64,000 nt of DNA from a virus: positions 39,546-103,545 of the IMG/VR virus record IMGVR_UViG_3300045988_058019; one strand, 5' to 3'. Every line of letters begins with the position of its first letter. The first letter of the stretch is position 1. Below the pieces are notes generated by a model that made no database searches, had not been told where the DNA came from, and saw only the letters and a list, made by a program, of their open reading frames with translations. The position numbers were made by a program, and so were the translations under genes. This document shows, in pieces, positions 9,644 to 60,580 of the stretch.

Positions 9644-9757
9644 AGATAGTAGCTGATAATAAAAATCAAATAAGCCCTAACAGATTAAAAGGGGAGTAAA
9701 ATCTGAGAGGGCTCGAAATTCCGTTTGAGATTATAATTATATAACGATAAGGTTTAT

Positions 9758-10780
9758 TTAAGGTTTCTATTTTGAAAATCTTCTTGCATAAACTAATAGC
9801 TCTTTATAGCGTAATATTTTCTTTAGTAAGTTAATACCATTACAATGCTTAAGCCAACCTATGTGACTACACATTTCTTGTTTGTAATCTTCTACTGTAA
9901 TATGCTTCTTTCTACCTAATCTAGCAGCTTTCCTACACATGCTACGCTTAATATTCTTCCTTACTAAAGTATAGTTATGTCTTATTACATAACCTACAAA
10001 TGATATTCCTCTATCTTCTACTTTAAATACCTGATAGTTATCTTTAAAAGATAATTTTAAAGTAGCAATATACTACTTCATTTCTTCAAACAATTCTCGT
10101 AAATACTCTTTATCCTTATGTAGTATTACTATATCATCTGCATATCTGAAGTAATATTTAACCTATTTATCTTCTTTAAGCCAGTGGTCAAAGTAAGTAA
10201 GATACAGATTAGCAAAGAACTAAGATAAGTAATTACCAATAGGTACACCTTCTGCTGAATCTATTATCTCATCTAATAGCTATAATAACTTCTAATCCTT
10301 TATCTTCTTTCTTATTATGCTCTTTAATACTTCATGGTCTATACTAGGATAGAACTTTCTGATATCTAACTTAAGACAATAAGTAGTATTATCTACATCT
10401 TTTAAAGCTTCTTTAACATTATGTAATGCTTCGTGAATACCTCTGTGTTTAATGCAACTATAAGTATCTTTAATAAAGATAGATACCCATATAGGTTCCA
10501 TTATATTCATTACAGCATGATGTACTATTCTATCTGGATAATAAGGTAATCTAAATATTAATCTTTCTTTAGGTTCTCTAATTATAAATGTATTATATTC
10601 AGAAGTTTTATACGTACCGTTAATTAAATTCTGCTATAGTTTTTTAAGTAATTCTTCTTTATTCTAGTCAAACTCTTTGATATCTTTTCTACTAGATTTA
10701 TTTCTTCTAGCTTTCTTATCTGCTAAATATAAATTGTCTAAGCTAACAATCTTATCGAATAAATTATTATATCTCTTCAT
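9758..10780 (-). CDS. Diversity-generating retroelement reverse transcriptase (8 in-frame TAG)
   Basis: Hand translation shows RLPYYPDRIVHHAV, DIRKFYPSIDH, GVPIGNYLS[TAG]FFANLYL (DGR-type IGxxxSQ motif), YFRYADDIVIL (YADD at 10133-10144) and GISFVGY. It is in frame with ORF-track 10292-10510 and ends at TAA 9758. Confidence 0.9.
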
Positions 10781-38829: not shown

Positions 38830-40911
38830 TTAAAACATATATGCTTCGATATTATCTATAGCTTCGTCGTCACGAAACCATTCCTGAGTAAATATAGGGC
38901 CTTCAAACAGTACCCTATTTCTATTCTCTTTTTTAATCTCTTTTACTTTAACATTATATAGCTATTCTCTATATATCATTACTTGGGTCAACGCCATTAC
39001 ACGGTCTACGTTAACTACATCGTTTGCAGCTATAAGTTCCTCTAATAGCGGTTCCGACATTATATTGTATAAGTTCTTCTTGCCATCTGCATTAATATCG
39101 TTAAGCCAATCCTTTATTAGACCCCATCCCCATTGCTTAATCTATTTATTCATGTGGCAACCTTTCTTTCTATTTACTTTAGAATTACTTACTATATCGT
39201 TAATTATATCTGGTTGATCAGCAAGTAAGTAGTCACAATGCTTATTAGTAAAGTAAACAAATATGCCTTTATTTTGATTCTCATACATTGCTCTAGCATT
39301 ATAGTATATAAGTAATTTACGTACATTTTCATAAAAATCTTCTGCTGACTTAGGTCTGCCTGTGTACTCTGCTACTATTATATCTGAATACTATTCTATA
39401 GACTATACTCTCTTATATATAAAACAAGAACCCAAAGATGTAGTACTTGATTCATCATAGTCGTATGAGTCTATACCTGCAATATACAAACCAGCACTAG
39501 CATCCTTATTAGGATGCTCCCATATTACTATAGAACCAGTAGGATCATCTCCTACTAATGCTCCAGTAACTTCATCCCTTTTAGTTCTTAATGGGTAATG
39601 TGTTATATCTCCTGTCTTCTTAATAACCCATTTAAGACTACCGTCAGGTTGCCATACTAGATCACCTACCTACTTATGATTCTATAATTTTTTATTAGTT
39701 CTGAGTAATGATAACTACTCTTGTAATTCCTTCTTGGGGAATATGTTACCATTAAACTCTAGCATGGCCTCTGCTGGAGTAATAGGTCTCTCTGCAACGT
39801 ATCTGTCAACTGCTGCGTTATTAGTGGCATTAGTTATTACTACTTGCCTTTCTGCTAATATGTGTTCTAAAGACTTCTTACGGTACGTATTACCGTCCTC
39901 GTCCATATATATACGTTTACCATTCTCATCACGTATATCTAAGTTAGTATATTGAGGTACAAAGAAACCACATTTATTAGTAGTAGCAGACTCATCCCAT
40001 ATGTTATCAAACCCTAAACAATTGTATCCATCAGGGTTGTAAAACATATCCTTCATAGTTTCAAATGCAGAACCTTCATCACCACCAGTACCCCATACTA
40101 TCATAGTACCAAAGGCTATACCATCTACCTCTACAGAAGGTCTAGCAATTTGCCATGCTGCTCCTAATTCAGAGAAAGAACCACCTTCCTCAAACATAAT
40201 AAGATTAGCTTTCTTACCACGTACTACATCAGGATTATCTTTCAAAGTAACCCCTATAATCTCTGACTTATAACCTAATTCTATAATATTACCGTAGTCA
40301 TCCTTAGTATAGAATCCTGCACGTCTACGCATCTAAGTGTTAACTGATCTCTTCTTACCCCACGCAGTATTCTTATCTATAAAGTCCATATAATCCCAAG
40401 CTTTAGTAAGAATACCATCATCTGTCAAATACTATTTATTTGATGCATATATGAAGGTTTTAGAGTATGGTATTAGATAGAAATTACGGCATGCCATAGA
40501 ACCACCTTTGTATGAAAAACCTTTACGTCTAGACTTAAGTAAGCATAAATGTTTACCCTACTCTTGGGCTTCCTATACTGCATTAAAATAGTAATAGTCG
40601 TAATCCCAGAAGTCGGGGAAAGTTACCTCATTAACACGTTTTACTTTAGTATTACCTAATTCATCTGTAGTAATATGATTGACTATACGAGATATAGGAC
40701 AATAGTTTAAATAAAAATAGTTATACCCACTAATGAAATCTCCATCATCAGCAGTATAACCATCTACGCATCTTTTACTTTCCTCATCCCAGAACTTAAA
40801 ATATTCTGAAGTACCTTCTGGATATACGCAATAAGAACCAGTAGCTATAAACTATAGTGCTGGTCCTCTAAATTTATTACTATTTACTATCTTCTTATTA
40901 AAGTCTACCAT
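38830..40911 (-). CDS. terL: Terminase large subunit, 693 aa
   Basis: ATG 40911 is in frame with ORF-track 39715-40332. Hand translation shows ATPase and RNaseH-like nuclease regions (..IMFEEGGSF.., ..LYIAGIDSYDYDE.., ..AEYTGRP.., ..YYNARAMYENQ..). There are multiple TAGs and TAA at 38830. Confidence 0.85.
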
Positions 40912-42382: not shown

Positions 42383-42460
42383 TGGTTGGGGCGGCAGGGC
42401 TCGAACCCGCACATCACAGAGGTTTAGAATCTCCGGTACTACCAATTATACCACGCCCCA
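42383..42460 (-). tRNA. Suppressor tRNA, anticodon CUA (reads UAG), probable Gln identity
   Basis: The reverse complement folds as TGGGGCG-TG-GTAT/AATTGGTA/GTAC-C-GGAGA/TTCTAAA/CCTCT-...-GCGGG/TTCGAGC/CCTGC-CGCCCCA-A-CCA. It has a perfect 7-bp acceptor stem, U33-CUA-A37 (anticodon at 42425-42427), a canonical T-loop and an encoded CCA. U1-A72 resembles bacterial tRNA-Gln. The variable region looks slightly long (about 7 nt). Confidence 0.85.
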
Positions 42461-51969: not shown

Positions 51970-51992
51970 GCCTGGAAAGACAGGCATTTTTT
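51970..51992 (+). terminator. Terminator-like hairpin inside a long intergenic region
   Basis: GCCTG-GAAAGA-CAGGC followed by ATTTTTT. Confidence 0.55.
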
Positions 51993-52066
51993 AGTCATCT
52001 ATAGTATTAAAAAGGCTATAGTATAGTAGTAATACCTACTCAAAGAGCACGGCGGTGGGCTCATAG

Positions 52067-52096
52067 TCAGGTGATAAGCCTATTCCTGACATTTTT
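52067..52096 (+). terminator. Terminator-like hairpin
   Basis: GTCAGG-13 nt-CCTGAC followed by ATTTTTATT. Confidence 0.45.
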
Positions 52097-52118
52097 ATTA
52101 ATTCAAAAACAAAAAGTA

Positions 52119-52379
52119 ATGAAATATTACGCATTTATGCCATTTTGGCATTGGTCTGAAGTTATGGATGAAAGACCAACTGATGGAGATTACATTCTTG
52201 GTAATATTGTAAGAACTACTGATGCATTACTAGCTCTTACTTTGTATTCAGAAACTCCATGTCCTGCATCTCAACTAATAGAGGCTAATAGCGAAGAAGA
52301 ACTTGAAGCTAAAATAGAAGAGATGAAACAAAACTATAAGAATCCAGAATGGGTTTCTAAACTTGAAGAATTTCTATAA
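52119..52379 (+). CDS. Hypothetical protein, 86 aa
   Basis: The ORF-track ORF 52071-52379 starts at a non-ATG codon inside a hairpin. The in-frame ATG at 52119 (MKYYAFMPFWHW..) is preferred. Confidence 0.5.
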   Translation: MKYYAFMPFWHWSEVMDERPTDGDYILGNIVRTTDALLALTLYSETPCPASQLIEANSEEELEAKIEEMKQNYKNPEWVSKLEEFL

Positions 52380-52390
52380 ATTCTTATTTA

Positions 52391-52475
52391 GCCCGAATGG
52401 TGAAATAGGTATACACGAAAGACTTAAAATCTTTTGACCATTATGGTCGTGCGAGTTCAAGTCTCGCTTCGGGTA
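52391..52475 (+). tRNA. tRNA-Leu (anticodon UAA), type II
   Basis: GCCCGAA acceptor, anticodon arm AAAGA/CTTAAAA/TCTTT, long variable arm GACCA-tta-TGGTC, T arm GCGAG/TTCAAGT/CTCGC, 3' strand TTCGGGT (G1.U72). Confidence 0.85.
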
Positions 52476-52850
52476 CAAAAGGATAGCTATCGTTTACTTC
52501 TCACAGACAGTTCTCAATAAAAAACTCAATAACTTCGGAGTAGCGTAAGCTACGGAGTTGTGTAACAATCCCAAGACATTGAGGGCACCAGTTTCTTATA
52601 ATAGTATAGTTGGCAGACGTAAGGGCGTACTCAGCTGCCAGATGAAGCAGTGAATTCTGTGGACTGATAGAGAACGTGTGATATTCAGGCTATGCGTTGC
52701 GCAGTTATAAGTTTTAGGTGTAAAATGCAATTTAATCATTAACTAAATAATCATATGGATAGAGACACAGAATTAGGTATGTTATCAGTAATAATCACAA
52801 TGATAGTATTATATCTATCTATATGGTTATTTAACTAAAAATGAACAGAA

Positions 52851-53075
52851 ATGAATACTCTAATTAGTAAATTATTAGGAACTGCAGTAGGAGTAAAAAT
52901 AGGGAATAATACTATTATAGGCTTATTAGTAGGTGTAGCATGGGATGAAAATTTACAAATATCAGAGTTATCATTATCTCCTTCAGAGAATAATGTAAAT
53001 ACTTATCTCATTGACACATATATTATGCCTTATTTTGACGAACACCTAAATATAGTAGTATATACCGCATTATAA
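52851..53075 (+). CDS. Hypothetical protein, 74 aa
   Basis: Intact ORF-track ORF. Confidence 0.45.
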   Translation: MNTLISKLLGTAVGVKIGNNTIIGLLVGVAWDENLQISELSLSPSENNVNTYLIDTYIMPYFDEHLNIVVYTAL

Positions 53076-53727
53076 TATTAATACAGATTTATTTCGCAAA
53101 GTAATTATTCTATGAAATGCAAATTATCCTCATATGTTGTGAAACATAATTTAACCACGTTAAAGTATAATAATATAAGTTAGGTATGTCCTTATAAAGA
53201 CTTAGGTAGCGCTAAGGACTATATTATTATACTTCTCTTCTTAAACCACCGATGATACGTGACAAGTCGTATATGGAATGAGTGTGAGTCAAGAAGTAAA
53301 CTATTCCGCCTTTATATGCACATTAAAGGTTAAAGATTGAATAGTAATCCACGTGGTAGATGCAGTTGTAGGTTCCAACTGGTGCACATCTTTTAGAGAC
53401 AGCAACCAAGCTCGAAGTAAGCAGAGCGAAGATTAGCTATACCTCGATAGGCTTAATGAGGTGCTTAACAGTCTGACACTAACTGAACAATAAGTGTCTT
53501 TTAAGTTCACCCTCAAGAAGGGAAAATGTTGAACTCTACAGATATGTAGACAGCTCCATTAACTCTAGCTGTAATAAAGAGTTATTAATAGAGTAAGAGA
53601 ATAGAAACGTGTATATCTACGTAGTTCTTAGCATAGCTTATAGTCGCACATCGTAACTGATGACTATATTAATGCGCTTACTCTATTATTTTTATTGCAT
53701 TAACTAACAAATAAATAATATCAAATT

Positions 53728-54174
53728 ATGGAGAAAATAACTTGTATTCAGCAGTATGTAATAGATAATCTTATTGAAGATGAGATATTATCTACAAACA
53801 GTCTATTAGATGCAGTTTCTGAAGTATGTTCAGAAGAACAATTTAATAACATACTATCTATTCTTATTGAAACACCTATTCCTTGTACAGACATACCTAA
53901 ATTGGAGCATAAAGAAGACTCAGGAAATAAAACAAACTTAGTAAGAATGAGTATGTTTATACCTGAAGAAACTAACACTTTAGCTAAACTAGGCATAATA
54001 AAAATACTAAAAAAACAATTCAACTTTAGTCTTAACCAAACTAAAGAATATGTAGATAGTTGCATAGGAAAGTATAGTATACTACCCAATGCTATTCTAC
54101 AAACAGAAGTAGATGAAGTTACTAAAAAATTAGAACCTTACAATGTAATTGTATCTACAGCAGTGTTTTATTAA
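53728..54174 (+). CDS. Hypothetical protein, 148 aa
   Basis: Intact ORF-track ORF. Confidence 0.5.
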   Translation: MEKITCIQQYVIDNLIEDEILSTNSLLDAVSEVCSEEQFNNILSILIETPIPCTDIPKLEHKEDSGNKTNLVRMSMFIPEETNTLAKLGIIKILKKQFNFSLNQTKEYVDSCIGKYSILPNAILQTEVDEVTKKLEPYNVIVSTAVFY

Positions 54175-54206
54175 TAAGTTAATGCAGTAAATATTACTGC
54201 ATCTAT

Positions 54207-54321
54207 ACTGTGAGAATCAGTGTCAACTTTGTGGGGCTTATATTCAGTTATTCTTTATGTAAAATAGGAGTCATGACCTAATAATATCATAATATAAACT
54301 GATATTAGTGCAGAGAAATCA
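54207..54321 (+). ncRNA. Structured RNA module, copy 1 (UGAGAAU hairpin ... UGUGGGGCUUAUAU - variable hairpin - UAUUAGUGCAGAG)
   Basis: ACTG-TGAGAAT-CAGT hairpin, conserved TGTGGGGCTTATAT, variable stem TCAGTT/AACTGA, conserved TATTAGTGCAGAGAAATCA. Confidence 0.5.
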
Positions 54322-54469
54322 AAGACAATATACATTTTAGTGCGATTGATGTATACGAGTAAAGGTCATGACAAGGTTCATGATTTAAGGGTGTCTTAAA
54401 CGACAGGTTGAGAGCAACAACGTAAAAGCACAATTGCTAAGTCAGAGGAACCCATCTCTGGCGCTCTTT

Positions 54470-54557
54470 AAGGTGAGAATCCTTAACAATCCTGTGGGGC
54501 TTATATCTCGTGTTTATAGTAGTGGTGTCACGAGTATTAGTGCAGACGTTAAAATCA
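54470..54557 (+). ncRNA. Structured RNA module, copy 2
   Basis: AAGG-TGAGAAT-CCTT (a compensatory stem relative to copies 1 and 3), TGTGGGGCTTATAT, stem CTCGTG/CACGAG, TATTAGTGCAGACGTTAAAATCA. Confidence 0.5.
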
Positions 54558-54891
54558 GGAACAACTATATTAGACGGCAATATTACCTTCTTCCGGTCGC
54601 AAATGTCATATAGTTTAATATAGCCAAGTTTGTTTCGTCCTTAGATTTACAGTATTTGCCATTTGTTTATTTAATCATTGTTCGTTCTTAATTATACAGA
54701 TTGATTAATTAAGCATAACAGTAAGCGTACTGTTGTCAGTATATTTATATGTGAATATAGATATACTGATTGCACTCAAAAGCTGGCCTTCACGTGGCGA
54801 GTGTGTTAAGTAATAGGTCTAAAAAATCTTCCAGTTTTACCTATGAAAACTAACAGCTACCTTTTTATTAACTTTAATAACTATCAAAAAT

Positions 54892-55077
54892 ATGTATAAA
54901 AAACTATCAAATTTAAATGTTGGAGATATATTCCAATATGGAGACACTATATATGAAATAGTAGAAAAAGGAGTATGGCATGCAAAATGCAAGTATATTA
55001 ATGAAACTCCTAAATCGGAATATTCACCTAAATATTTATTTATAAATTTTAGTCTTTATACTCGAGTTAAAGTTTAA
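54892..55077 (+). CDS. Small hypothetical protein, 61 aa
   Basis: Intact ORF-track ORF. Confidence 0.45.
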   Translation: MYKKLSNLNVGDIFQYGDTIYEIVEKGVWHAKCKYINETPKSEYSPKYLFINFSLYTRVKV

Positions 55078-55088
55078 TAATTTTAAAT

Positions 55089-55171
55089 GCCCAGATGGCG
55101 AAATAGGTAGACGCTAAGGTCTTAAACACCTTTGACCATTGGTCGTGCGGGTTCGACTCCCGCTCTGGGTA
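55089..55171 (+). tRNA. tRNA-Leu (anticodon UAA), second diverged copy
   Basis: GCCCAGA acceptor, anticodon arm AAGGT/CTTAAAC/ACCTT, variable arm GACCA-t-TGGTC, T arm GCGGG/TTCGACT/CCCGC, 3' strand TCTGGGT (G1.U72). Confidence 0.85.
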
Positions 55172-55200
55172 CAATTAGTAATTAACATTAAAATCTATTT

Positions 55201-55506
55201 ATGATAAAAGTAATTAAATATTATGAACTAAATCGAATTAGTAGAATATTAGTAATAGCAATAATAACATATATTATTGGCATTCTAATTAAAAGAGAAT
55301 ATGAAGAGTCCAAAACTGTATATAATTTTGTAGATTTACAAATGAAGTACAAGAATTATATATTAGTTAATAAAGAGAGAAGTATTACTAATGATGAAGA
55401 ATATAAGTTCACATTACGTAATCCTATTACAAATCAAAATAGTACTGTATACGTAAAATACTATCTATATCATCATGTATATTTCGTTGGAGATACTATA
55501 AAATAA
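55201..55506 (+). CDS. Hypothetical membrane-anchored protein
   Basis: Intact ORF with an N-terminal hydrophobic segment. Confidence 0.5.
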   Translation: MIKVIKYYELNRISRILVIAIITYIIGILIKREYEESKTVYNFVDLQMKYKNYILVNKERSITNDEEYKFTLRNPITNQNSTVYVKYYLYHHVYFVGDTIK

Positions 55507-55525
55507 CATTTTAATCAATAAAAGT

Positions 55526-55894
55526 ATGAAAAGAGAAGAAATTAAATCTTACAAAGATGCTTGCAAAGTAATAGGTAGGAAACCTAGAACTTATAAAGAT
55601 AAGCATTTGAATCTGTATGAACAGCTTAGTACAATTATAGCTGCTCTAAATTTCATTAGTAATGGTAATAAACCTTGGACACCTAAGTTCGATTATTATT
55701 ACATCTATTCTTGGTTGTATAGAGAAGATGAATATAATAAAACTGCGGGTTTGTTCCATTTGAATTCTTACCGTGGGTTGGGCTCTTCCTCTGCTGGTGT
55801 CGGGGCTTCTCTGAAGATAAAAGAAAGAGAAGATGGAAATTACATAATGGAAAACTTTGAAGAACTACTCCAAGATTGGTTTTGGGGAGATTAA
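55526..55894 (+). CDS. Hypothetical protein, 122 aa
   Basis: Intact ORF-track ORF. Confidence 0.5.
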   Translation: MKREEIKSYKDACKVIGRKPRTYKDKHLNLYEQLSTIIAALNFISNGNKPWTPKFDYYYIYSWLYREDEYNKTAGLFHLNSYRGLGSSSAGVGASLKIKEREDGNYIMENFEELLQDWFWGD

Positions 55895-55919
55895 TTACTA
55901 ATTTTAAAACATTATCAAA

Positions 55920-56384
55920 ATGGAAAATGATTTAATGGCGAGACCTGAACCGCCAAGAAGAACTGTTTGGGTAGTAGTAGCAATCCTTGCCTTAATAGGC
56001 ATGATTGGAGCAATATTTTACGCAGAGCGTAAAAACATTGCTAATTTCTTAAATGGTGTAAACCAAGAAGAAGTACAAGAAGATGCGCATATTACTATTG
56101 AAGAGCCTGTAGCAACAATACAGGATATTCTCGATATGCGTGAGCAAATGAGAGAAGATAGAAGGATTGATAGTGTATTTTTAGCTATGCCAAAGGTAGT
56201 ATTAATTGATATTTTGATGCAGCATGGTACATCATTGTCTATAAAAGACATGATTTACATATATGAATCAAACACATCAACGTATAACACAGTACTATCT
56301 GGAGCAAGAGCTCAAAAATATCTTGATGACTCTATACAAACTCATGTTATATCAACGGTTGTAAATGACTCTATTCAAAATTAA
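55920..56384 (+). CDS. Hypothetical membrane-anchored protein
   Basis: Intact ORF with TM segment VWVVVAILALIGMIGAIFY. Confidence 0.5.
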   Translation: MENDLMARPEPPRRTVWVVVAILALIGMIGAIFYAERKNIANFLNGVNQEEVQEDAHITIEEPVATIQDILDMREQMREDRRIDSVFLAMPKVVLIDILMQHGTSLSIKDMIYIYESNTSTYNTVLSGARAQKYLDDSIQTHVISTVVNDSIQN

Positions 56385-56474
56385 AACCAAACCTCCTGTT
56401 TTAAATGAATATTAGAGTCTAGTATACTCAGTCTGTGAAGATAGAGTATACTTTCATTAAAAAAACTAAATAAT

Positions 56475-56918
56475 ATGAGAAAGTACACAAACACATATAT
56501 AATAAAAGATAACAATGGAGTATTAGTTATTAAAGGAAACAATAAATACATTGAAGTATTAATTGATGTTGAAGATATTGATAAATTAAAGCCTTATTCT
56601 TGGAGAATAAACGATAAAGGGTATATAATATCTGATTATAAAAGAAATAAAGTAAGATTACACAATATAATATTAGATAGAGACACATCTAATACAAAAA
56701 TCGTGTGTGACCATATTAATCGAAATAAGTTAGATAATAGAAAAGCAAATCTAAGAATAATAAGTCAAAGAGAAAACAACTTAAATAGAGAGAATATAAT
56801 CAACGCTAAATATTATACTTATAGAAAAGACAGAAATAAGTATTATGTATATGGAGTTGGTTATTTTAATACTGAAGAAGAAGCAATAAAAGCTCGTAAT
56901 AACTGTGAGAATCAGTAA
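56475..56918 (+). CDS. HNH homing endonuclease
   Basis: VCDHINRNKLDNRKANLRIISQRENN is the HNH motif. The 3' end overlaps RNA module copy 3. Confidence 0.8.
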   Translation: MRKYTNTYIIKDNNGVLVIKGNNKYIEVLIDVEDIDKLKPYSWRINDKGYIISDYKRNKVRLHNIILDRDTSNTKIVCDHINRNKLDNRKANLRIISQRENNLNRENIINAKYYTYRKDRNKYYVYGVGYFNTEEEAIKARNNCENQ

Positions 56919-56994
56919 CAAACATGTGGGGCTCATATCTTATCAAAAGAATGCTAGCGCTTTTAGATAGGTATTAGTGCAGACGTTAAAATCA
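56902..56994 (+). ncRNA. Structured RNA module, copy 3
   Basis: ACTG-TGAGAAT-CAGT, TGTGGGGCTCATAT, variable hairpin CTTATC../..GATAGG, TATTAGTGCAGACGTTAAAATCA. Confidence 0.5.
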
Positions 56995-57187
56995 TGTACT
57001 CCAATAAGATTTAGTTTGACAGCTATTTCTGCTTATGAGTTAAAACTATAGTGAGAGTCATAGTAAGTAACGATTGTAGTCGTTTATCTTTGTCTTATAA
57101 CAAATGCTATAAACTAAGAGTTGGCACTAACTTAATTAAATCCTGAGTGTCCAGGCGTCATTATTAACAATTTAAATTTTTAGAAAC

Positions 57188-57421
57188 ATGAAAAAGATTG
57201 GAAAATTTTTATTTGTAGAGCAATGCTTTACAGATACTGAAGAAACAAAACCTTGTATTATTCACATTGATGCAATTGACTGTATAACATGCACCAATAT
57301 CAGTGGACTCGGAGAAGTTGTAGTAATAGAAACAGATAATACAAAAATTCTCTGCAACGATCCGGATAATTTCTTTACTGAGTTTGAAAACCTAATTTCA
57401 TCAGAGGAAGAAGAATGGTAG
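57188..57421 (+). CDS. Hypothetical acidic protein (ends at TAG)
   Basis: Intact ORF. The TAG stop is followed 3 codons later by an in-frame TAA. Confidence 0.5.
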   Translation: MKKIGKFLFVEQCFTDTEETKPCIIHIDAIDCITCTNISGLGEVVVIETDNTKILCNDPDNFFTEFENLISSEEEEW

Positions 57422-57678
57422 TCAATAAAGTAAAAGAAGGTCGTAAGTTAACTGAAATAAAGTTCAGTAACGACCATTATCTTGCTAACCTATTAGCTAC
57501 TACTAAAGTACTTGGTATATCGTTAGAACGAGCTAAAAAGCTATGTAGAACAGTACCAGGTAAAAGAGTAGAAGTTAATCCACCTATTGAAATTATCAGT
57601 AAACTAAATACTGATAAACTATTTGAAGAATTAGAGGAATATGAAATAGAAGTATCTATCAGTATTCCTAGTAAATAA
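57415..57678 (+). CDS. Hypothetical protein, 87 aa
   Basis: Intact ORF whose start overlaps the previous stop. Confidence 0.5.
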   Translation: MVVNKVKEGRKLTEIKFSNDHYLANLLATTKVLGISLERAKKLCRTVPGKRVEVNPPIEIISKLNTDKLFEELEEYEIEVSISIPSK

Positions 57679-57695
57679 CTTATCAAAAGTAAAGT

Positions 57696-58163
57696 ATGAA
57701 AGCAATTATTATTTCGTTTGAAGGAGTTATAAAGGATGAAACTATATTAGCATCACTTTTAGCATCCTGCATAGGAAAAAATGTAAATACTGAAGATGTA
57801 GATGTTCATATCTTGTCAGATATAGATGTAACAAATGCTTTAATAGCTAAATGTTTAACTCCACCTGCTATAGCAGTAGATAGACCAGCTAATCCGCAAA
57901 TTGCAGTAGTAAAAGACTTCTGTAAGAAGATTATTGCATCTATTGGTTCACCTGCTCTCAAGACACGAGAGCTATTGAATTCAGAACTATGTAAGTTCTT
58001 AGTACAACAGAATCGCGAGGTTATTAGTGTTCCAGTAAGTATTATTGCTAAAGTAAATACTACTTCTGCATATTACGAACATCGTAAGGTACTAAAGGAA
58101 TACGGTTTATCTGCATTACCTGAGTTATTACGAGATATTAATCCTCTATTTAAATTTTATTAG
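57696..58163 (+). CDS. Hypothetical protein, 155 aa (ends at TAG)
   Basis: Intact ORF. TAG is followed by 5 codons and then TAA. Confidence 0.5.
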   Translation: MKAIIISFEGVIKDETILASLLASCIGKNVNTEDVDVHILSDIDVTNALIAKCLTPPAIAVDRPANPQIAVVKDFCKKIIASIGSPALKTRELLNSELCKFLVQQNREVISVPVSIIAKVNTTSAYYEHRKVLKEYGLSALPELLRDINPLFKFY

Positions 58164-58164
58164 T

Positions 58165-58263
58165 ATGGCAAAGAAGAATAATGAAGAACCTCCAAAGGAA
58201 TTCAAAAAGAAGCCAAAACATAAAAAGATGGAGCCTTATAATCGTAAGAAAGCATGGAAGTAA
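58165..58263 (+). CDS. Possible 32-aa Lys-rich peptide
   Basis: ATG..TAA ORF MAKKNNEEPPKEFKKKPKHKKMEPYNRKKAWK. Confidence 0.3.
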   Translation: MAKKNNEEPPKEFKKKPKHKKMEPYNRKKAWK

Positions 58264-58400
58264 ACAATGATTGTCCTACACTTGATAATCATATCAACTG
58301 TAGTGAATGTACTCACGAGTGTAAACTCAGAATGCAACCAAAGAATAGTAAAGAAGTAGAGGTTCCGCCAGAGCCTCTACTCAATACTATATATTACTAA
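58254..58400 (+). CDS. Possible 48-aa Cys-containing peptide
   Basis: ATG..TAA ORF MEVNNDCPTLDNHINCSECTHECK.. Confidence 0.3.
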   Translation: MEVNNDCPTLDNHINCSECTHECKLRMQPKNSKEVEVPPEPLLNTIYY

Positions 58401-58642
58401 TTTAAATTGTTAGTAAAATGGTGGATTCAGTCAACCTAAAGAACTGTTTAAGACTAGAACCCTAATGGAAATTGTCAATCAAGAGTACAATGGACTATAC
58501 AACGGTCAACCACATTATATGTAGGTCAGGAGAAGGCAGGGAGTCTCCTGTTGAATAAGAAGTACAAATAGACAGGAACAGTTCTTTTTAATTATTACTT
58601 AAATTTACTAAAAGATATGAGTAAAACAAAAAACAAATTAAA

Positions 58643-58870
58643 ATGTCATATTATATGACCAATATAGTCATCACTCCTACTCTATACGAGGAGAAAAGAT
58701 TAGAAGCTATATCATACTTTAGTAGATGTAGCAAAGAAGTAGCACTAAAAATTCATAAAAAGAATAAGTATAAAGATATCAAATTAAGGCTAAATGTTAT
58801 AGCAGTAGCTATAATAGAAGCTAAAAAGAGATATTTTGACGACTGTTCTTTTATTAAGATTATATTATAG
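58643..58870 (+). CDS. Hypothetical protein, 75 aa (ends at TAG)
   Basis: Intact ORF. TAG is followed by one codon and then TAA. Confidence 0.45.
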   Translation: MSYYMTNIVITPTLYEEKRLEAISYFSRCSKEVALKIHKKNKYKDIKLRLNVIAVAIIEAKKRYFDDCSFIKIIL

Positions 58871-58914
58871 TGTTAAATAAATTTTATTGTTAAATCAATT
58901 AAACTGTATTCAAA

Positions 58915-59385
58915 ATGGCAGAAAAAGAAAAATTGAACATCCTTACAGAGGATGTAAATGGTGACAACATCCAAGACGTAATTGCAAACTCAAGTAAAGT
59001 AACTGAAGAAATCGCAGAAGAAGCTGCGAAGAAGATTGCCGAACGCCGTAAGGAGAAACTTACGAAGGATCTTGTCAATGTTGTTCAGAAGAGCGAATAT
59101 ACTGTTATGTCGGCAGTATTGCAAGTTCGCCGTTCTAACAGAACAAACCAACGTATCAAAACCTACCTGAAGGAATTGTCCGCACTGAAGGAAGAGATTG
59201 TGAGCGGAAAGAAACCCGTGTCCGCATGGAATGAAGAAGCGCTCGCTCTCAAGAAACAGTACGATAAAGACCTTATTGAGATTGGGAAAGAAATCGACAA
59301 GTCGCTTAACGAATTGAACGAAATCTTCCCGGACTCCTGGCAGTGGAGATACAATGAGTTAGTTCCCGGTGTAAATCGTCGCTAA
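58915..59385 (+). CDS. Coiled-coil hypothetical protein, compositionally GC-richer
   Basis: Intact ORF whose codons are visibly richer in G/C than those of neighbouring early genes. Confidence 0.55.
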   Translation: MAEKEKLNILTEDVNGDNIQDVIANSSKVTEEIAEEAAKKIAERRKEKLTKDLVNVVQKSEYTVMSAVLQVRRSNRTNQRIKTYLKELSALKEEIVSGKKPVSAWNEEALALKKQYDKDLIEIGKEIDKSLNELNEIFPDSWQWRYNELVPGVNRR

Positions 59386-59898
59386 CTCAAAACAAACAAA
59401 ATAAAAGAGGTTCCAAGCTTAGAATCTTTGAATCAATAGCTTAGTATGTGAGTCGGAATCAGTTCTTTTGAACTAACTAGGGCCTGAGGCATACAAGGAC
59501 CTGAATTAACAGGTCTCATACAGAATTTTTAAATCAGTTATGGGGAACTACCGTGAACTACTGATCATAAGTCTGAGATCGCGACAATAAGATTGTCCTC
59601 TAGAGATAGAGAAACGCCTTAGTCGTGACATCAAGTTAGACTGAATAATATGAATCTTTGAATCGCTTAAAGTATCTATACTTTAACTATTATTCGTGTA
59701 TTATCAAGATCAGTATAAGAGAACTAACCATTCTCAAGACCATAGGGTATATGACTTTGGTCGGTCATATACTCACAATAGAGTAGGTATAATACCGAAC
59801 TGTAAAAAGAATTGACTGTTAGGTCTATTTATGCCTTCAGGTGACCGCGGGGCAGTACCGCGCACATCCACTAAAAAAATATAATAAGGGTGTGAAAT

Positions 59899-60092
59899 AG
59901 TATTGAACCGTTGAAACAGAATAGAATAGGTCAATAAGCAGATAACTGGCAATACAAGTTATGTAACGGACTATACTGGTATCGCAGCGTGATAACAGAG
60001 TCCAACGGCTAAGCTAATGTCGTAGAAAGCTGGGGCATATCAGGCTAGATCAGACGTAAGGGCTGTGAAGGGTTCGATTCCCTTCAATGCTA
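59899..60092 (+). ncRNA. tRNA-like-terminated structured RNA candidate
   Basis: A canonical T arm AAGGG/TTCGATT/CCCTT (60068-60084) is followed by CAATGCT-A. This pairs 7/7 (one U.G) with AGTATTG at 59899-59905. The interior has helices CCGTTG/CAACGG and GACT/AGTC. There is no canonical D or anticodon arm. Confidence 0.35.
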
Positions 60093-60125
60093 CAATATTA
60101 AGTTTAATCAATAAATTAATTTGAA

Positions 60126-60404
60126 ATGGGATTAATGAATTTTATTAGACAGAATCTTCCAGAATCATGGGAGAAAGCTGCAACAGAGATGAGAATGAAG
60201 ACTGAATTAATAACTCGTCTTCATAATGTAGTACCTCGTGCTTATAAGAATAAGTATCACTACAAAGAAGGAATATCTTATATTAGAAGAGTATTCAATA
60301 CTAAATGTGACATAATACATTTAGTAGATGCTACTGATATAGATATTACTAAATGGAATGAATTAAGTAGTAAAATAAAAGAATACGAATATCAATGCGT
60401 GTAA
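60126..60404 (+). CDS. Hypothetical protein, 92 aa
   Basis: Intact ORF-track ORF. Confidence 0.5.
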   Translation: MGLMNFIRQNLPESWEKAATEMRMKTELITRLHNVVPRAYKNKYHYKEGISYIRRVFNTKCDIIHLVDATDIDITKWNELSSKIKEYEYQCV

Positions 60405-60580
60405 GATATTTTGCTTGGTTTGACTCTAAACATGAAAGAACAGAGTTCATTAACTTGCTCAGATCAGCTAAGTCTGATATTGATGCAGTTAATAAAGTGA
60501 TGCAAAAGTATCCAGAATTAACTTTATCAGAAGTATCTGGAATAGTAAATAACTTTAAAAAAGAAATTAATCAACCATGA
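60395..60580 (+). CDS. Hypothetical protein, 61 aa
   Basis: Intact ORF with overlapping ends. Confidence 0.45.
   Translation: MRVRYFAWFDSKHERTEFINLLRSAKSDIDAVNKVMQKYPELTLSEVSGIVNNFKKEINQP

Follow-up and report, generated by a model that had tools for sequence, protein, structure and literature searches.

Three copies of the hatchet ribozyme motif in a region of a Suoliviridae phage genome, one of them overlapping the end of an HNH endonuclease gene

Introduction

The window analysed here is a stretch of 64,000 nucleotides (nt) of viral DNA (positions 39,546 to 103,545 of the IMG/VR record IMGVR_UViG_3300045988_058019), in which a co-directional region rich in small genes and non-coding RNAs harbours two tRNA-Leu genes, three RAGATH motifs, a gene for an HNH endonuclease and three copies of a compact RNA module (Table 1). 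An earlier note, made from the letters alone, had described these copies on the + strand, where direct reading of the sequence confirms them, and had taken them for a functional RNA outside any known family. The modules can be assigned with high confidence to the hatchet self-cleaving ribozymes (RF02678), carried in this case by a crAss-like phage of the Suoliviridae. The class was reportedly described by Weinberg et al. in 2015. As a discovery the motif is thus small: it is already known, the copies sit in the usual habitat of the family, and they add three annotated hatchets to a known Crassvirales family.

Table 1. Coordinates of the hatchet copies and of the features around them, numbered from the first nucleotide of the window
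Feature	Position	Strand	Basis or remark
Hatchet copy 1	54201-54324	+	RF02678, 89.6 bits
Hatchet copy 2	54464-54560	+	RF02678, 97.6 bits
Hatchet copy 3	56896-56997	+	RF02678, 88.7 bits
Copy 1 P1	54205-54210/54218-54223	+	UGAGAAU loop
Copy 1 CAA linker	54224-54226	+	P2 = 54227-54231/54320-54324
Copy 2 P1	54468-54473/54481-54486	+	CAA = 54487-54489; P2 = 54490-54494/54556-54560
Copy 3 P1	56900-56905/56913-56918	+	CAA = 56919-56921; P2 = 56922-56926/56993-56997
P0 hairpin of hatchet 1 (GCAGUA-AAUAU-UACUGC)	54184-54200	+	sequence; reproduced by the minimum free energy (MFE) fold
P0 hairpin of hatchet 2 (CAGAG-GAACCCAU-CUCUG)	54443-54460	+	sequence and MFE fold
HNH cassette	56452-56918	+	23-nt A/U-rich leader plus HNH(-AP2 type) open reading frame (ORF)
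HNH endonuclease ORF, 147 aa	56475-56918	+	PHROG 99 'HNH endonuclease', E = 4e-16
Stranded P0 of the original site-3 hatchet (GUAUACUC...GAGUAUAC)	56422-56451	+	identical in cr53_1, cr115_1 and MT835588
Conserved element 3′ of site-3 hatchets (ACUCCAAUAAG-hairpin-CUGCUUAUGAGUUAAAACUA-AGUGAGAGUCAUA)	56998-57062	+	would stay on the ribozyme after predicted cleavage
RAGATH-6	53087-53237	+	Rfam, 173.5 bits, above threshold
RAGATH-7	53300-53499	+	Rfam, 190.3 bits, above threshold
RAGATH-9	58427-58588	+	Rfam, 136.4 bits, above threshold
RAGATH-20-like weak match	59498-59580	+	28.8 bits, gathering score 101
tRNA-Leu(UAA) pair, 2.7 kb apart	52391-52476 and 55089-55172	+	in the block rich in non-coding RNAs
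tmRNA_permuted match	59811-59992	+	Rfam, 56.1 bits, gathering score 47

Results

The whole window was scanned against Rfam 15 at gathering thresholds, and the three modules were recovered as hatchets with E-values from 1e-17 to 1e-20. All three matches cover model positions 1-133 of 133, at scores (88.7-97.6 bits) nearly twice the gathering score of 51, which overturns the earlier claim of novelty, so that the modules have practically no chance of representing a previously undescribed RNA family. The Rfam limits extend about 6 nt more to the 5′ side and about 3 nt more to the 3′ side than those drawn before. The composite pattern GTGAGAATC-N11-TGTGGGGC, run over the 64 kb window with up to 3 mismatches permitted, gave 3 matches (shuffle expectation 0.03; 0/100 shuffles reach 3), and the module is present on the + strand in exactly three copies. 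Two other identities were considered and rejected, namely pieces of a tRNA-like or transfer-messenger RNA (tmRNA), and components of a group I intron surrounding the HNH gene, for which the Rfam scan of the window gives no Intron_gpI match.

The stem that caps the UGAGAAU loop, already noticed as a layout shared by the copies, corresponds to P1, and is 6 bp long in all three copies instead of the 4 bp first proposed. Its strands (AUACUG/CAGUGU in copy 1, UUAAGG/CCUUAA in copy 2 and UAACUG/CAGUAA in copy 3) differ yet pair in every copy, as had been claimed for the first stem, with a single A.A mismatch in copy 3. Besides P1, each copy contains P2, P3 and P4. The conserved CAA lies in the linker, together with the 5′ strand of P2, a helix that closes the domain by pairing the linker with the bases immediately 3′ of AAAUCA; it covaries (CUUUG/CAAAG, UCCUG/CAGGA and ACAUG/CAUGU in copies 1, 2 and 3) and had been overlooked in a listing of the architecture that was otherwise right about P1 and P4. 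The invariant block UGUGGGGCUUAUAU comprises the 5′ strand of L2 and P3, the variable central hairpin is P4, which changes in sequence while remaining paired, just as first described, and the block UAUUAGUGCAGACGUUAAAAUCA runs from P3 through the 3′ strand of L2 into the beginning of P2.

The nucleotides reported as highly conserved in the hatchet crystal structure, C20-A22, U28-G31, G63-G66 and A73-A75 (PMC6561176), correspond to CAA, UGGG, GCAG and AAA in the window, and these are present in copies 1, 2 and 3. The core of copy 2 is the full consensus, and the MFE fold of this copy recovers P0, P1, P2, P3 and P4. Copies 2 and 3 have the 3′ core GTGCAGACGTTAAAATC without any change, and copy 1 has it in a shortened form, its L2 3′ strand (AGAGAAAU) being 4 nt under the consensus; the four absent nucleotides, CGUU, are less conserved, and this short-L2 variant is kept at the site of copy 1 in cr53_1 and cr4_1. 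The P0 hairpin of hatchet 1 lies just 5′ of the predicted cut and 10 nt past the stop codon of the ORF at 53728-54174.

For the analysis of covariation, the window and related phage loci supplied 24 distinct hatchets, which were aligned, and the pairs of P1-P4 were counted. Standard pairs are formed by 92.3% of the cells, double (compensatory) changes occur in 16/22 pairs, and 0/500 shuffles are as good; when the 3′ partners are slid by 1-3 columns, pairing falls to 30-41%. Because compensatory changes keep four helices, the reading of the modules as a structured RNA is sound, and the view that they are a functional RNA and not a DNA repeat stands, with further covarying homologs now at hand; the hatchet family itself rests on evidence of this kind. 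The contrary explanation would be that the repeats act only as DNA, in the form of recombination or endonuclease recognition sites, and that their RNA is functionless; copy 3 does adjoin an HNH endonuclease gene, and a conserved core would suit as a homing target. Yet compensatory changes preserving four helices make sense only for RNA, which effectively refutes the DNA-only explanation. In addition, every copy is carried by the strand that is transcribed in a block of co-directional genes, there is no endonuclease gene near copies 1 and 2, and ribozyme activity has been proven for the hatchet family (PMC4604424), all of which leaves a role as DNA alone extremely improbable.

The window stretch 52000-60000 shares 90.6% identity over the matching part with crAssphage cr53_1 (Suoliviridae, Blohavirus), and other Suoliviridae match it more patchily. 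Rfam scans found the hatchets to be syntenic in four Suoliviridae genomes (cr53_1, cr115_1, cr4_1 and cr125_1), where the site upstream of tRNA-Leu holds one or two hatchets and the site after the 'shock protein B' gene (window 55920-56384) holds one. Related GenBank records annotate neither hatchets nor RAGATH RNAs. In IMG/VR, at least 145 hatchets of the exact pattern are present in at least 119 contigs, mostly of 50-100 kb; among the matches listed, about 26 loci have two, and where positions are listed, a distance of 210-290 nt separates the two hatchets, which share one strand as copies 1 and 2 do. Membership of the hatchet family, a covarying P1-P4 fold, the core nucleotides and a conserved position in relatives are in this way all observed for the window copies. 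At the time of PMC4604424, 210 representatives were known, all from metagenomic DNA; according to a recent preprint, hatchets are for the most part restricted to Crassvirales.

Hatchet cleavage is Mg2+-dependent and proceeds by attack of the 2′-OH of nucleotide -1, leaving a 2′,3′-cyclic phosphate on the upstream product and a 5′-OH on the ribozyme (PMC4604424). The cut falls immediately 5′ of the first P1 pair, in which U1 pairs with A19, followed by C20-A22 (PMC6561176); C20 pairs with G30 beside the scissile bond. Mapping of the cut sites from the crystal construct, through the equivalence of A3-U17 with Rfam positions 7 and 21, predicts that the bonds cleaved in the window would be those between 54204 and 54205, 54467 and 54468, and 56899 and 56900.

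Hatchet copy 3 starts within the 3′ end of the HNH ORF, in agreement with what had first been reported. The encoded protein contains the HNH motif DHINRNKLDNRKANLR and reaches 23.9 bits with the Pfam model HNH_3, just below the 24.8 cut-off; its homologues carry PF13392 and PF00847 (AP2), and a PDB sequence search with it gave no meaningful match. The final codons of the gene, AAC UGU GAG AAU CAG UAA, are at the same time P1 of hatchet 3, and the predicted cut precedes the HNH stop codon (56916-56918) by 16 nt. The overlap is a constant of this protein clade, tested with the window protein, IMG/VR relatives at 99% and 56% identity and six protein-search homologue clusters: for 7/7 tested proteins (49-99% identity), the reading frame either closes some 22 nt within a hatchet or runs on into it. 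Their tails, CENQ followed by the stop, are the translation of cUG-UGAGAAU-CAG, and one tail reads YRENR before the stop, with P1 covaried to CCG/CGG; a more distant HNH homologue has neither a CENQ tail nor a hatchet. Another 132 phage hatchets come with sufficient sequence on their 5′ side for comparison; an ORF of 60 aa or longer spans the cleavage site in only 6 of them, and in 5 of these cases it is this HNH gene.

The HNH gene is present in the window and in the related loci L007 and L008, and absent from cr53_1, cr115_1 and MT835588, whose alignment with the window shows the flanks of the insertion to be about 100% identical. In these three genomes the native site-3 hatchet is a variant with a 3-bp P1 (GUCC-UCA-GAAAA-UGA-CAA...GGGGCGUAAG) that abuts its P0. 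In the window, the leader, the HNH ORF and a hatchet with a 6-bp P1 replace everything from the end of P0 (56451) to the 3′ core of the ribozyme, and the original P0 has been displaced by the insertion to 448 nt upstream of copy 3. Four other loci (L009, L033, L041 and L121) keep dead 5′ remnants of a displaced ribozyme upstream of the HNH start; these have the form P0-GUCx-UCA-GNAGA-UGA-CAA-ACCU, in which P0, P1 and CAA are followed by a portion of the P2 5′ strand, and stop just short of the conserved GUGGGGC/GGGGC core. Conservation of the HNH gene equals or, often, exceeds that of the neighbouring genes. The coupling between HNH genes and hatchets is specific and conserved, with presence/absence polymorphism and replacement of the resident ribozyme. 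The suggestion, once raised against a ribozyme, that the module could be the conserved flank of an HNH mobile cassette is partly borne out, for copy 3 only, and copy 3 is a ribozyme match all the same.

In 7/10 HNH-linked hatchets (L009, L026, L028, L034, L041, L053 and L121), UAA replaces the CAA linker and provides a tandem stop after the HNH ORF; copy 3 of the window retains CAA. Such UAA-linker hatchets may be attenuated, either weak or dead. As a separate observation, the P0 loops of site 3 repeatedly hold GUGAA or GUGAGAAU, resembling the P1 loop, a likeness seen at 56430-56443 of the window and upstream of the HNH gene in L009, L026, L028, L030, L031 and L034. Group I intron matches also occur a few kb downstream of the hatchets in L003 (cr4_1; 9720-10009) and in the ENA contig L030 (6663-6918), the latter locus having an HNH homologue plus a second, unrelated HNH gene (PF01844) beside the intron.

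Discussion

The most likely function of these modules in the phage would be the processing of transcripts. Each RNA would cut its own backbone with Mg2+ directly 5′ of P1, so that the upstream RNA would keep the 2′,3′-cyclic phosphate and the ribozyme would remain on the 5′-OH end of the downstream RNA. The three ribozymes would in this manner segment one long transcript, and a scan of the + strand from 51985 to 60500 found nothing that resembles an intrinsic terminator. A protecting P0 hairpin would close the upstream pieces, giving stable 3′ ends; at copies 1 and 2, the cleaved upstream RNA would terminate with the P0 hairpin plus four nucleotides. Downstream pieces, which would include conserved non-coding elements, small ORFs and tRNA-Leu, would begin with a folded 5′-OH ribozyme. 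The P0 hairpin is present in about 90% of hatchets, is dispensable in vitro and was reported to show no sequence conservation (PMC4604424). Double cleavage at hatchets 1 and 2 would free a 263-nt RNA (54205-54467) made of hatchet 1, a spacer and P0, and the spacer between the two ribozymes (54325-54442, + strand) is poorly conserved across genera.

Several points weigh against an interpretation in which all three copies are working ribozymes with a processing role. Thermodynamic folding is not significant (z = -1.8, 0.0 and -0.2 for copies 1, 2 and 3), folding z-scores being uninformative in A/U-rich RNA and not used as evidence in either direction, and the hatchet fold of copy 3 lies 3.6 kcal/mol above its MFE fold. 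Copy 1, with its L2 4 nt shorter, lacks the L2 U whose partner in the crystal structure is A65, whereas copy 3 combines the A.A mismatch in P1 with the loss of an adjacent P0 and an overlap with a translated ORF. As no biological role has been settled for hatchets in published work (PMC6765202), a part in transcript processing can be put forward only conditionally. One or more of the copies, with 1 and 3 as candidates, could on these grounds be catalytically dead relics that keep a hatchet sequence, all the more as hatchet folding demands high Mg2+ (PMC6561176). Such relics are unlikely, since three genera share the short-L2 variant at one and the same site, P1 and P4 showing compensatory changes, and copy 3 keeps every highly conserved nucleotide, C20 included. 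Moreover, position -1 is tolerant, A, G and U being cleaved too (PMC6561176), and P0, as already said, is unneeded in vitro. Three active hatchets are therefore still the preferred reading, and the predicted cleavage bonds can be sought in metatranscriptomes.

An additional possibility, which would extend that reading more than compete with it, is that copy 3 forms part of a mobile HNH-hatchet cassette, and comparison of the sequences leaves its chances evenly balanced. A free-standing HNH(-AP2) homing endonuclease would invade hatchet loci between P0 and the ribozyme core, and the last codons of its gene would bring a replacement for the 5′ part of the ribozyme, the 6-bp P1, so that ribozyme function would survive the insertion. 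Self-cleavage would then sever the HNH message, and since the predicted cut precedes the stop codon by 16 nt, the cleaved product would be a non-stop mRNA, forming an unprotected 3′ tail downstream of P0. The outcome would be a limited expression of the endonuclease and the restoration of the native upstream RNA end. This proposal draws on the presence or absence of the HNH gene with exact replacement of the native hatchet between flanks about 100% identical, on its consistent overlap with a hatchet, on the tails that track P1, on the displaced-ribozyme remnants, on the rarity of overlapping ORFs at other hatchets and on a conservation that equals or exceeds that of the neighbours. On the other hand, the supposed target core UGUGGGGC is also found in the allele that carries the HNH gene, which leaves immunity unexplained, and the whole pattern is compatible with vertical inheritance, losses and ordinary recombination. 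The non-stop mRNA and the exonuclease trimming are purely inferred consequences, and the UAA-linker hatchets that predominate beside the HNH gene are possibly weak or dead. The stronger version of the cassette proposal, an HNH-AP2 homing endonuclease clade specialised on crAss-like hatchets, which would supply P1 from its last five codons and whose message would be a disposable 3′ tail, is more tentative and falls somewhat short of even chances.

Composites of a group I intron with a homing endonuclease gene (HEG), and free-standing HEGs of the T4 Seg/Mob type ('intronless homing'), preserve the function of the gene that they invade. The HNH cassette resembles these systems in its sporadic presence, its insertion in a conserved sequence, the replacement of flanks and the retention of function. 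It differs from them in that there is no splicing and the invaded gene is a small self-cleaving ribozyme, whose function would be kept through a replacement P1 overlapping the end of the ORF, whereas removal of the ORF would follow from cleavage and decay. If true, the cassette would parallel the homing endonucleases carried by introns, but without splicing, and would provide the first example in nature of a small self-cleaving ribozyme being coupled to the control of a mobile endonuclease. No report of the HNH-hatchet link was found in the searchable literature, a coverage that leaves out the 2015 discovery paper, and the association may be new, unlike the hatchet motif itself. In any case, the link offers a testable handle on the purpose of hatchets and their P0 hairpins, and bears on how mobile endonucleases enter non-coding RNA genes without harming the phage.

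Compared with the hatchet family as published (RF02678; Li et al. 2015, PMC4604424; Zheng et al. 2019, PMC6561176), the window copies show the same P1-P4, the same 6-bp P1 with its UGAGAAU loop, the same CAA linker and UGGG/GCAG/AAA core, an upstream P0 and the same source in gut metagenomes and Crassvirales. They depart from it in the shorter L2 of copy 1 and in copy 3, which has lost its adjacent P0 and whose P1 doubles as a coding end; known hatchets have a P1 of either 3 or 6 bp. The only other class that cuts at its very 5′ end is the hepatitis delta virus (HDV) type (PMC6561176). Theta ribozymes, found in phages of the mammalian gut, have been proposed to make the 3′ end of upstream RNAs, in particular tRNA 3′ trailers (PMC10879173), and the definition of 3′ ends proposed here for hatchets resembles that one. 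Theta/HDV-like ribozymes are nonetheless of an unrelated fold and family; what precedes the window hatchets is an mRNA or a non-coding RNA ending in P0 and not a tRNA, and neither of the two tRNA-Leu genes of the window is directly followed by a hatchet.

Other RNAs and genes of the region

The neighbourhood of the hatchets is rich in other RNAs. The RAGATH-6, -7 and -9 motifs (RF02686, RF03159 and RF03146), whose acronym stands for RNAs associated with genes associated with twister and hammerhead, lie within 1-2 kb of them, but differ in structure from the modules, which are not RAGATH RNAs; for the RAGATH motifs that are not ribozymes, no cleavage has been seen (PMC6765202). When 52300-60300 was scanned permissively against Rfam (E <= 1), no family matched 54325-54463, 54561-54891 or 56998-57187, and the small neighbouring ORFs gave nothing in Pfam or PHROG searches. 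The last of these intervals, a 190-nt non-coding stretch on the + strand immediately 3′ of hatchet 3, is about 100% identical in cr53_1, cr115_1 and MT835588, and its first 65 nt or so are kept in distant phages, with a few compensatory changes (ACUC/GAGU, AUUC/GAAU and ACAC/GUGU).

A second non-coding element (54715-54860, + strand), located between hatchet 2 and the ORF at 54892, is almost invariant even in comparison with cr4_1, which belongs to a different genus. It shows the hairpins ACAGUA/UACUGU and CAGUAUAU..GUGAA..AUAUACUG and a motif, CUUCACGUGGCGAG, that recalls RAGATH-6/-7, with no Rfam match at E <= 1, and may be an undescribed structured RNA.

The tmRNA_permuted match is of interest because a cleaved HNH mRNA would have no stop codon; in cr115_1 and cr125_1 the corresponding region bears a tmRNA annotation, but ARAGORN calls none at this place in the window. 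Finally, a tRNA with anticodon CUA at 42383-42460 (- strand), which ARAGORN calls tRNA-Pyl, is probably an amber suppressor and hints at recoding of TAG in the phage.

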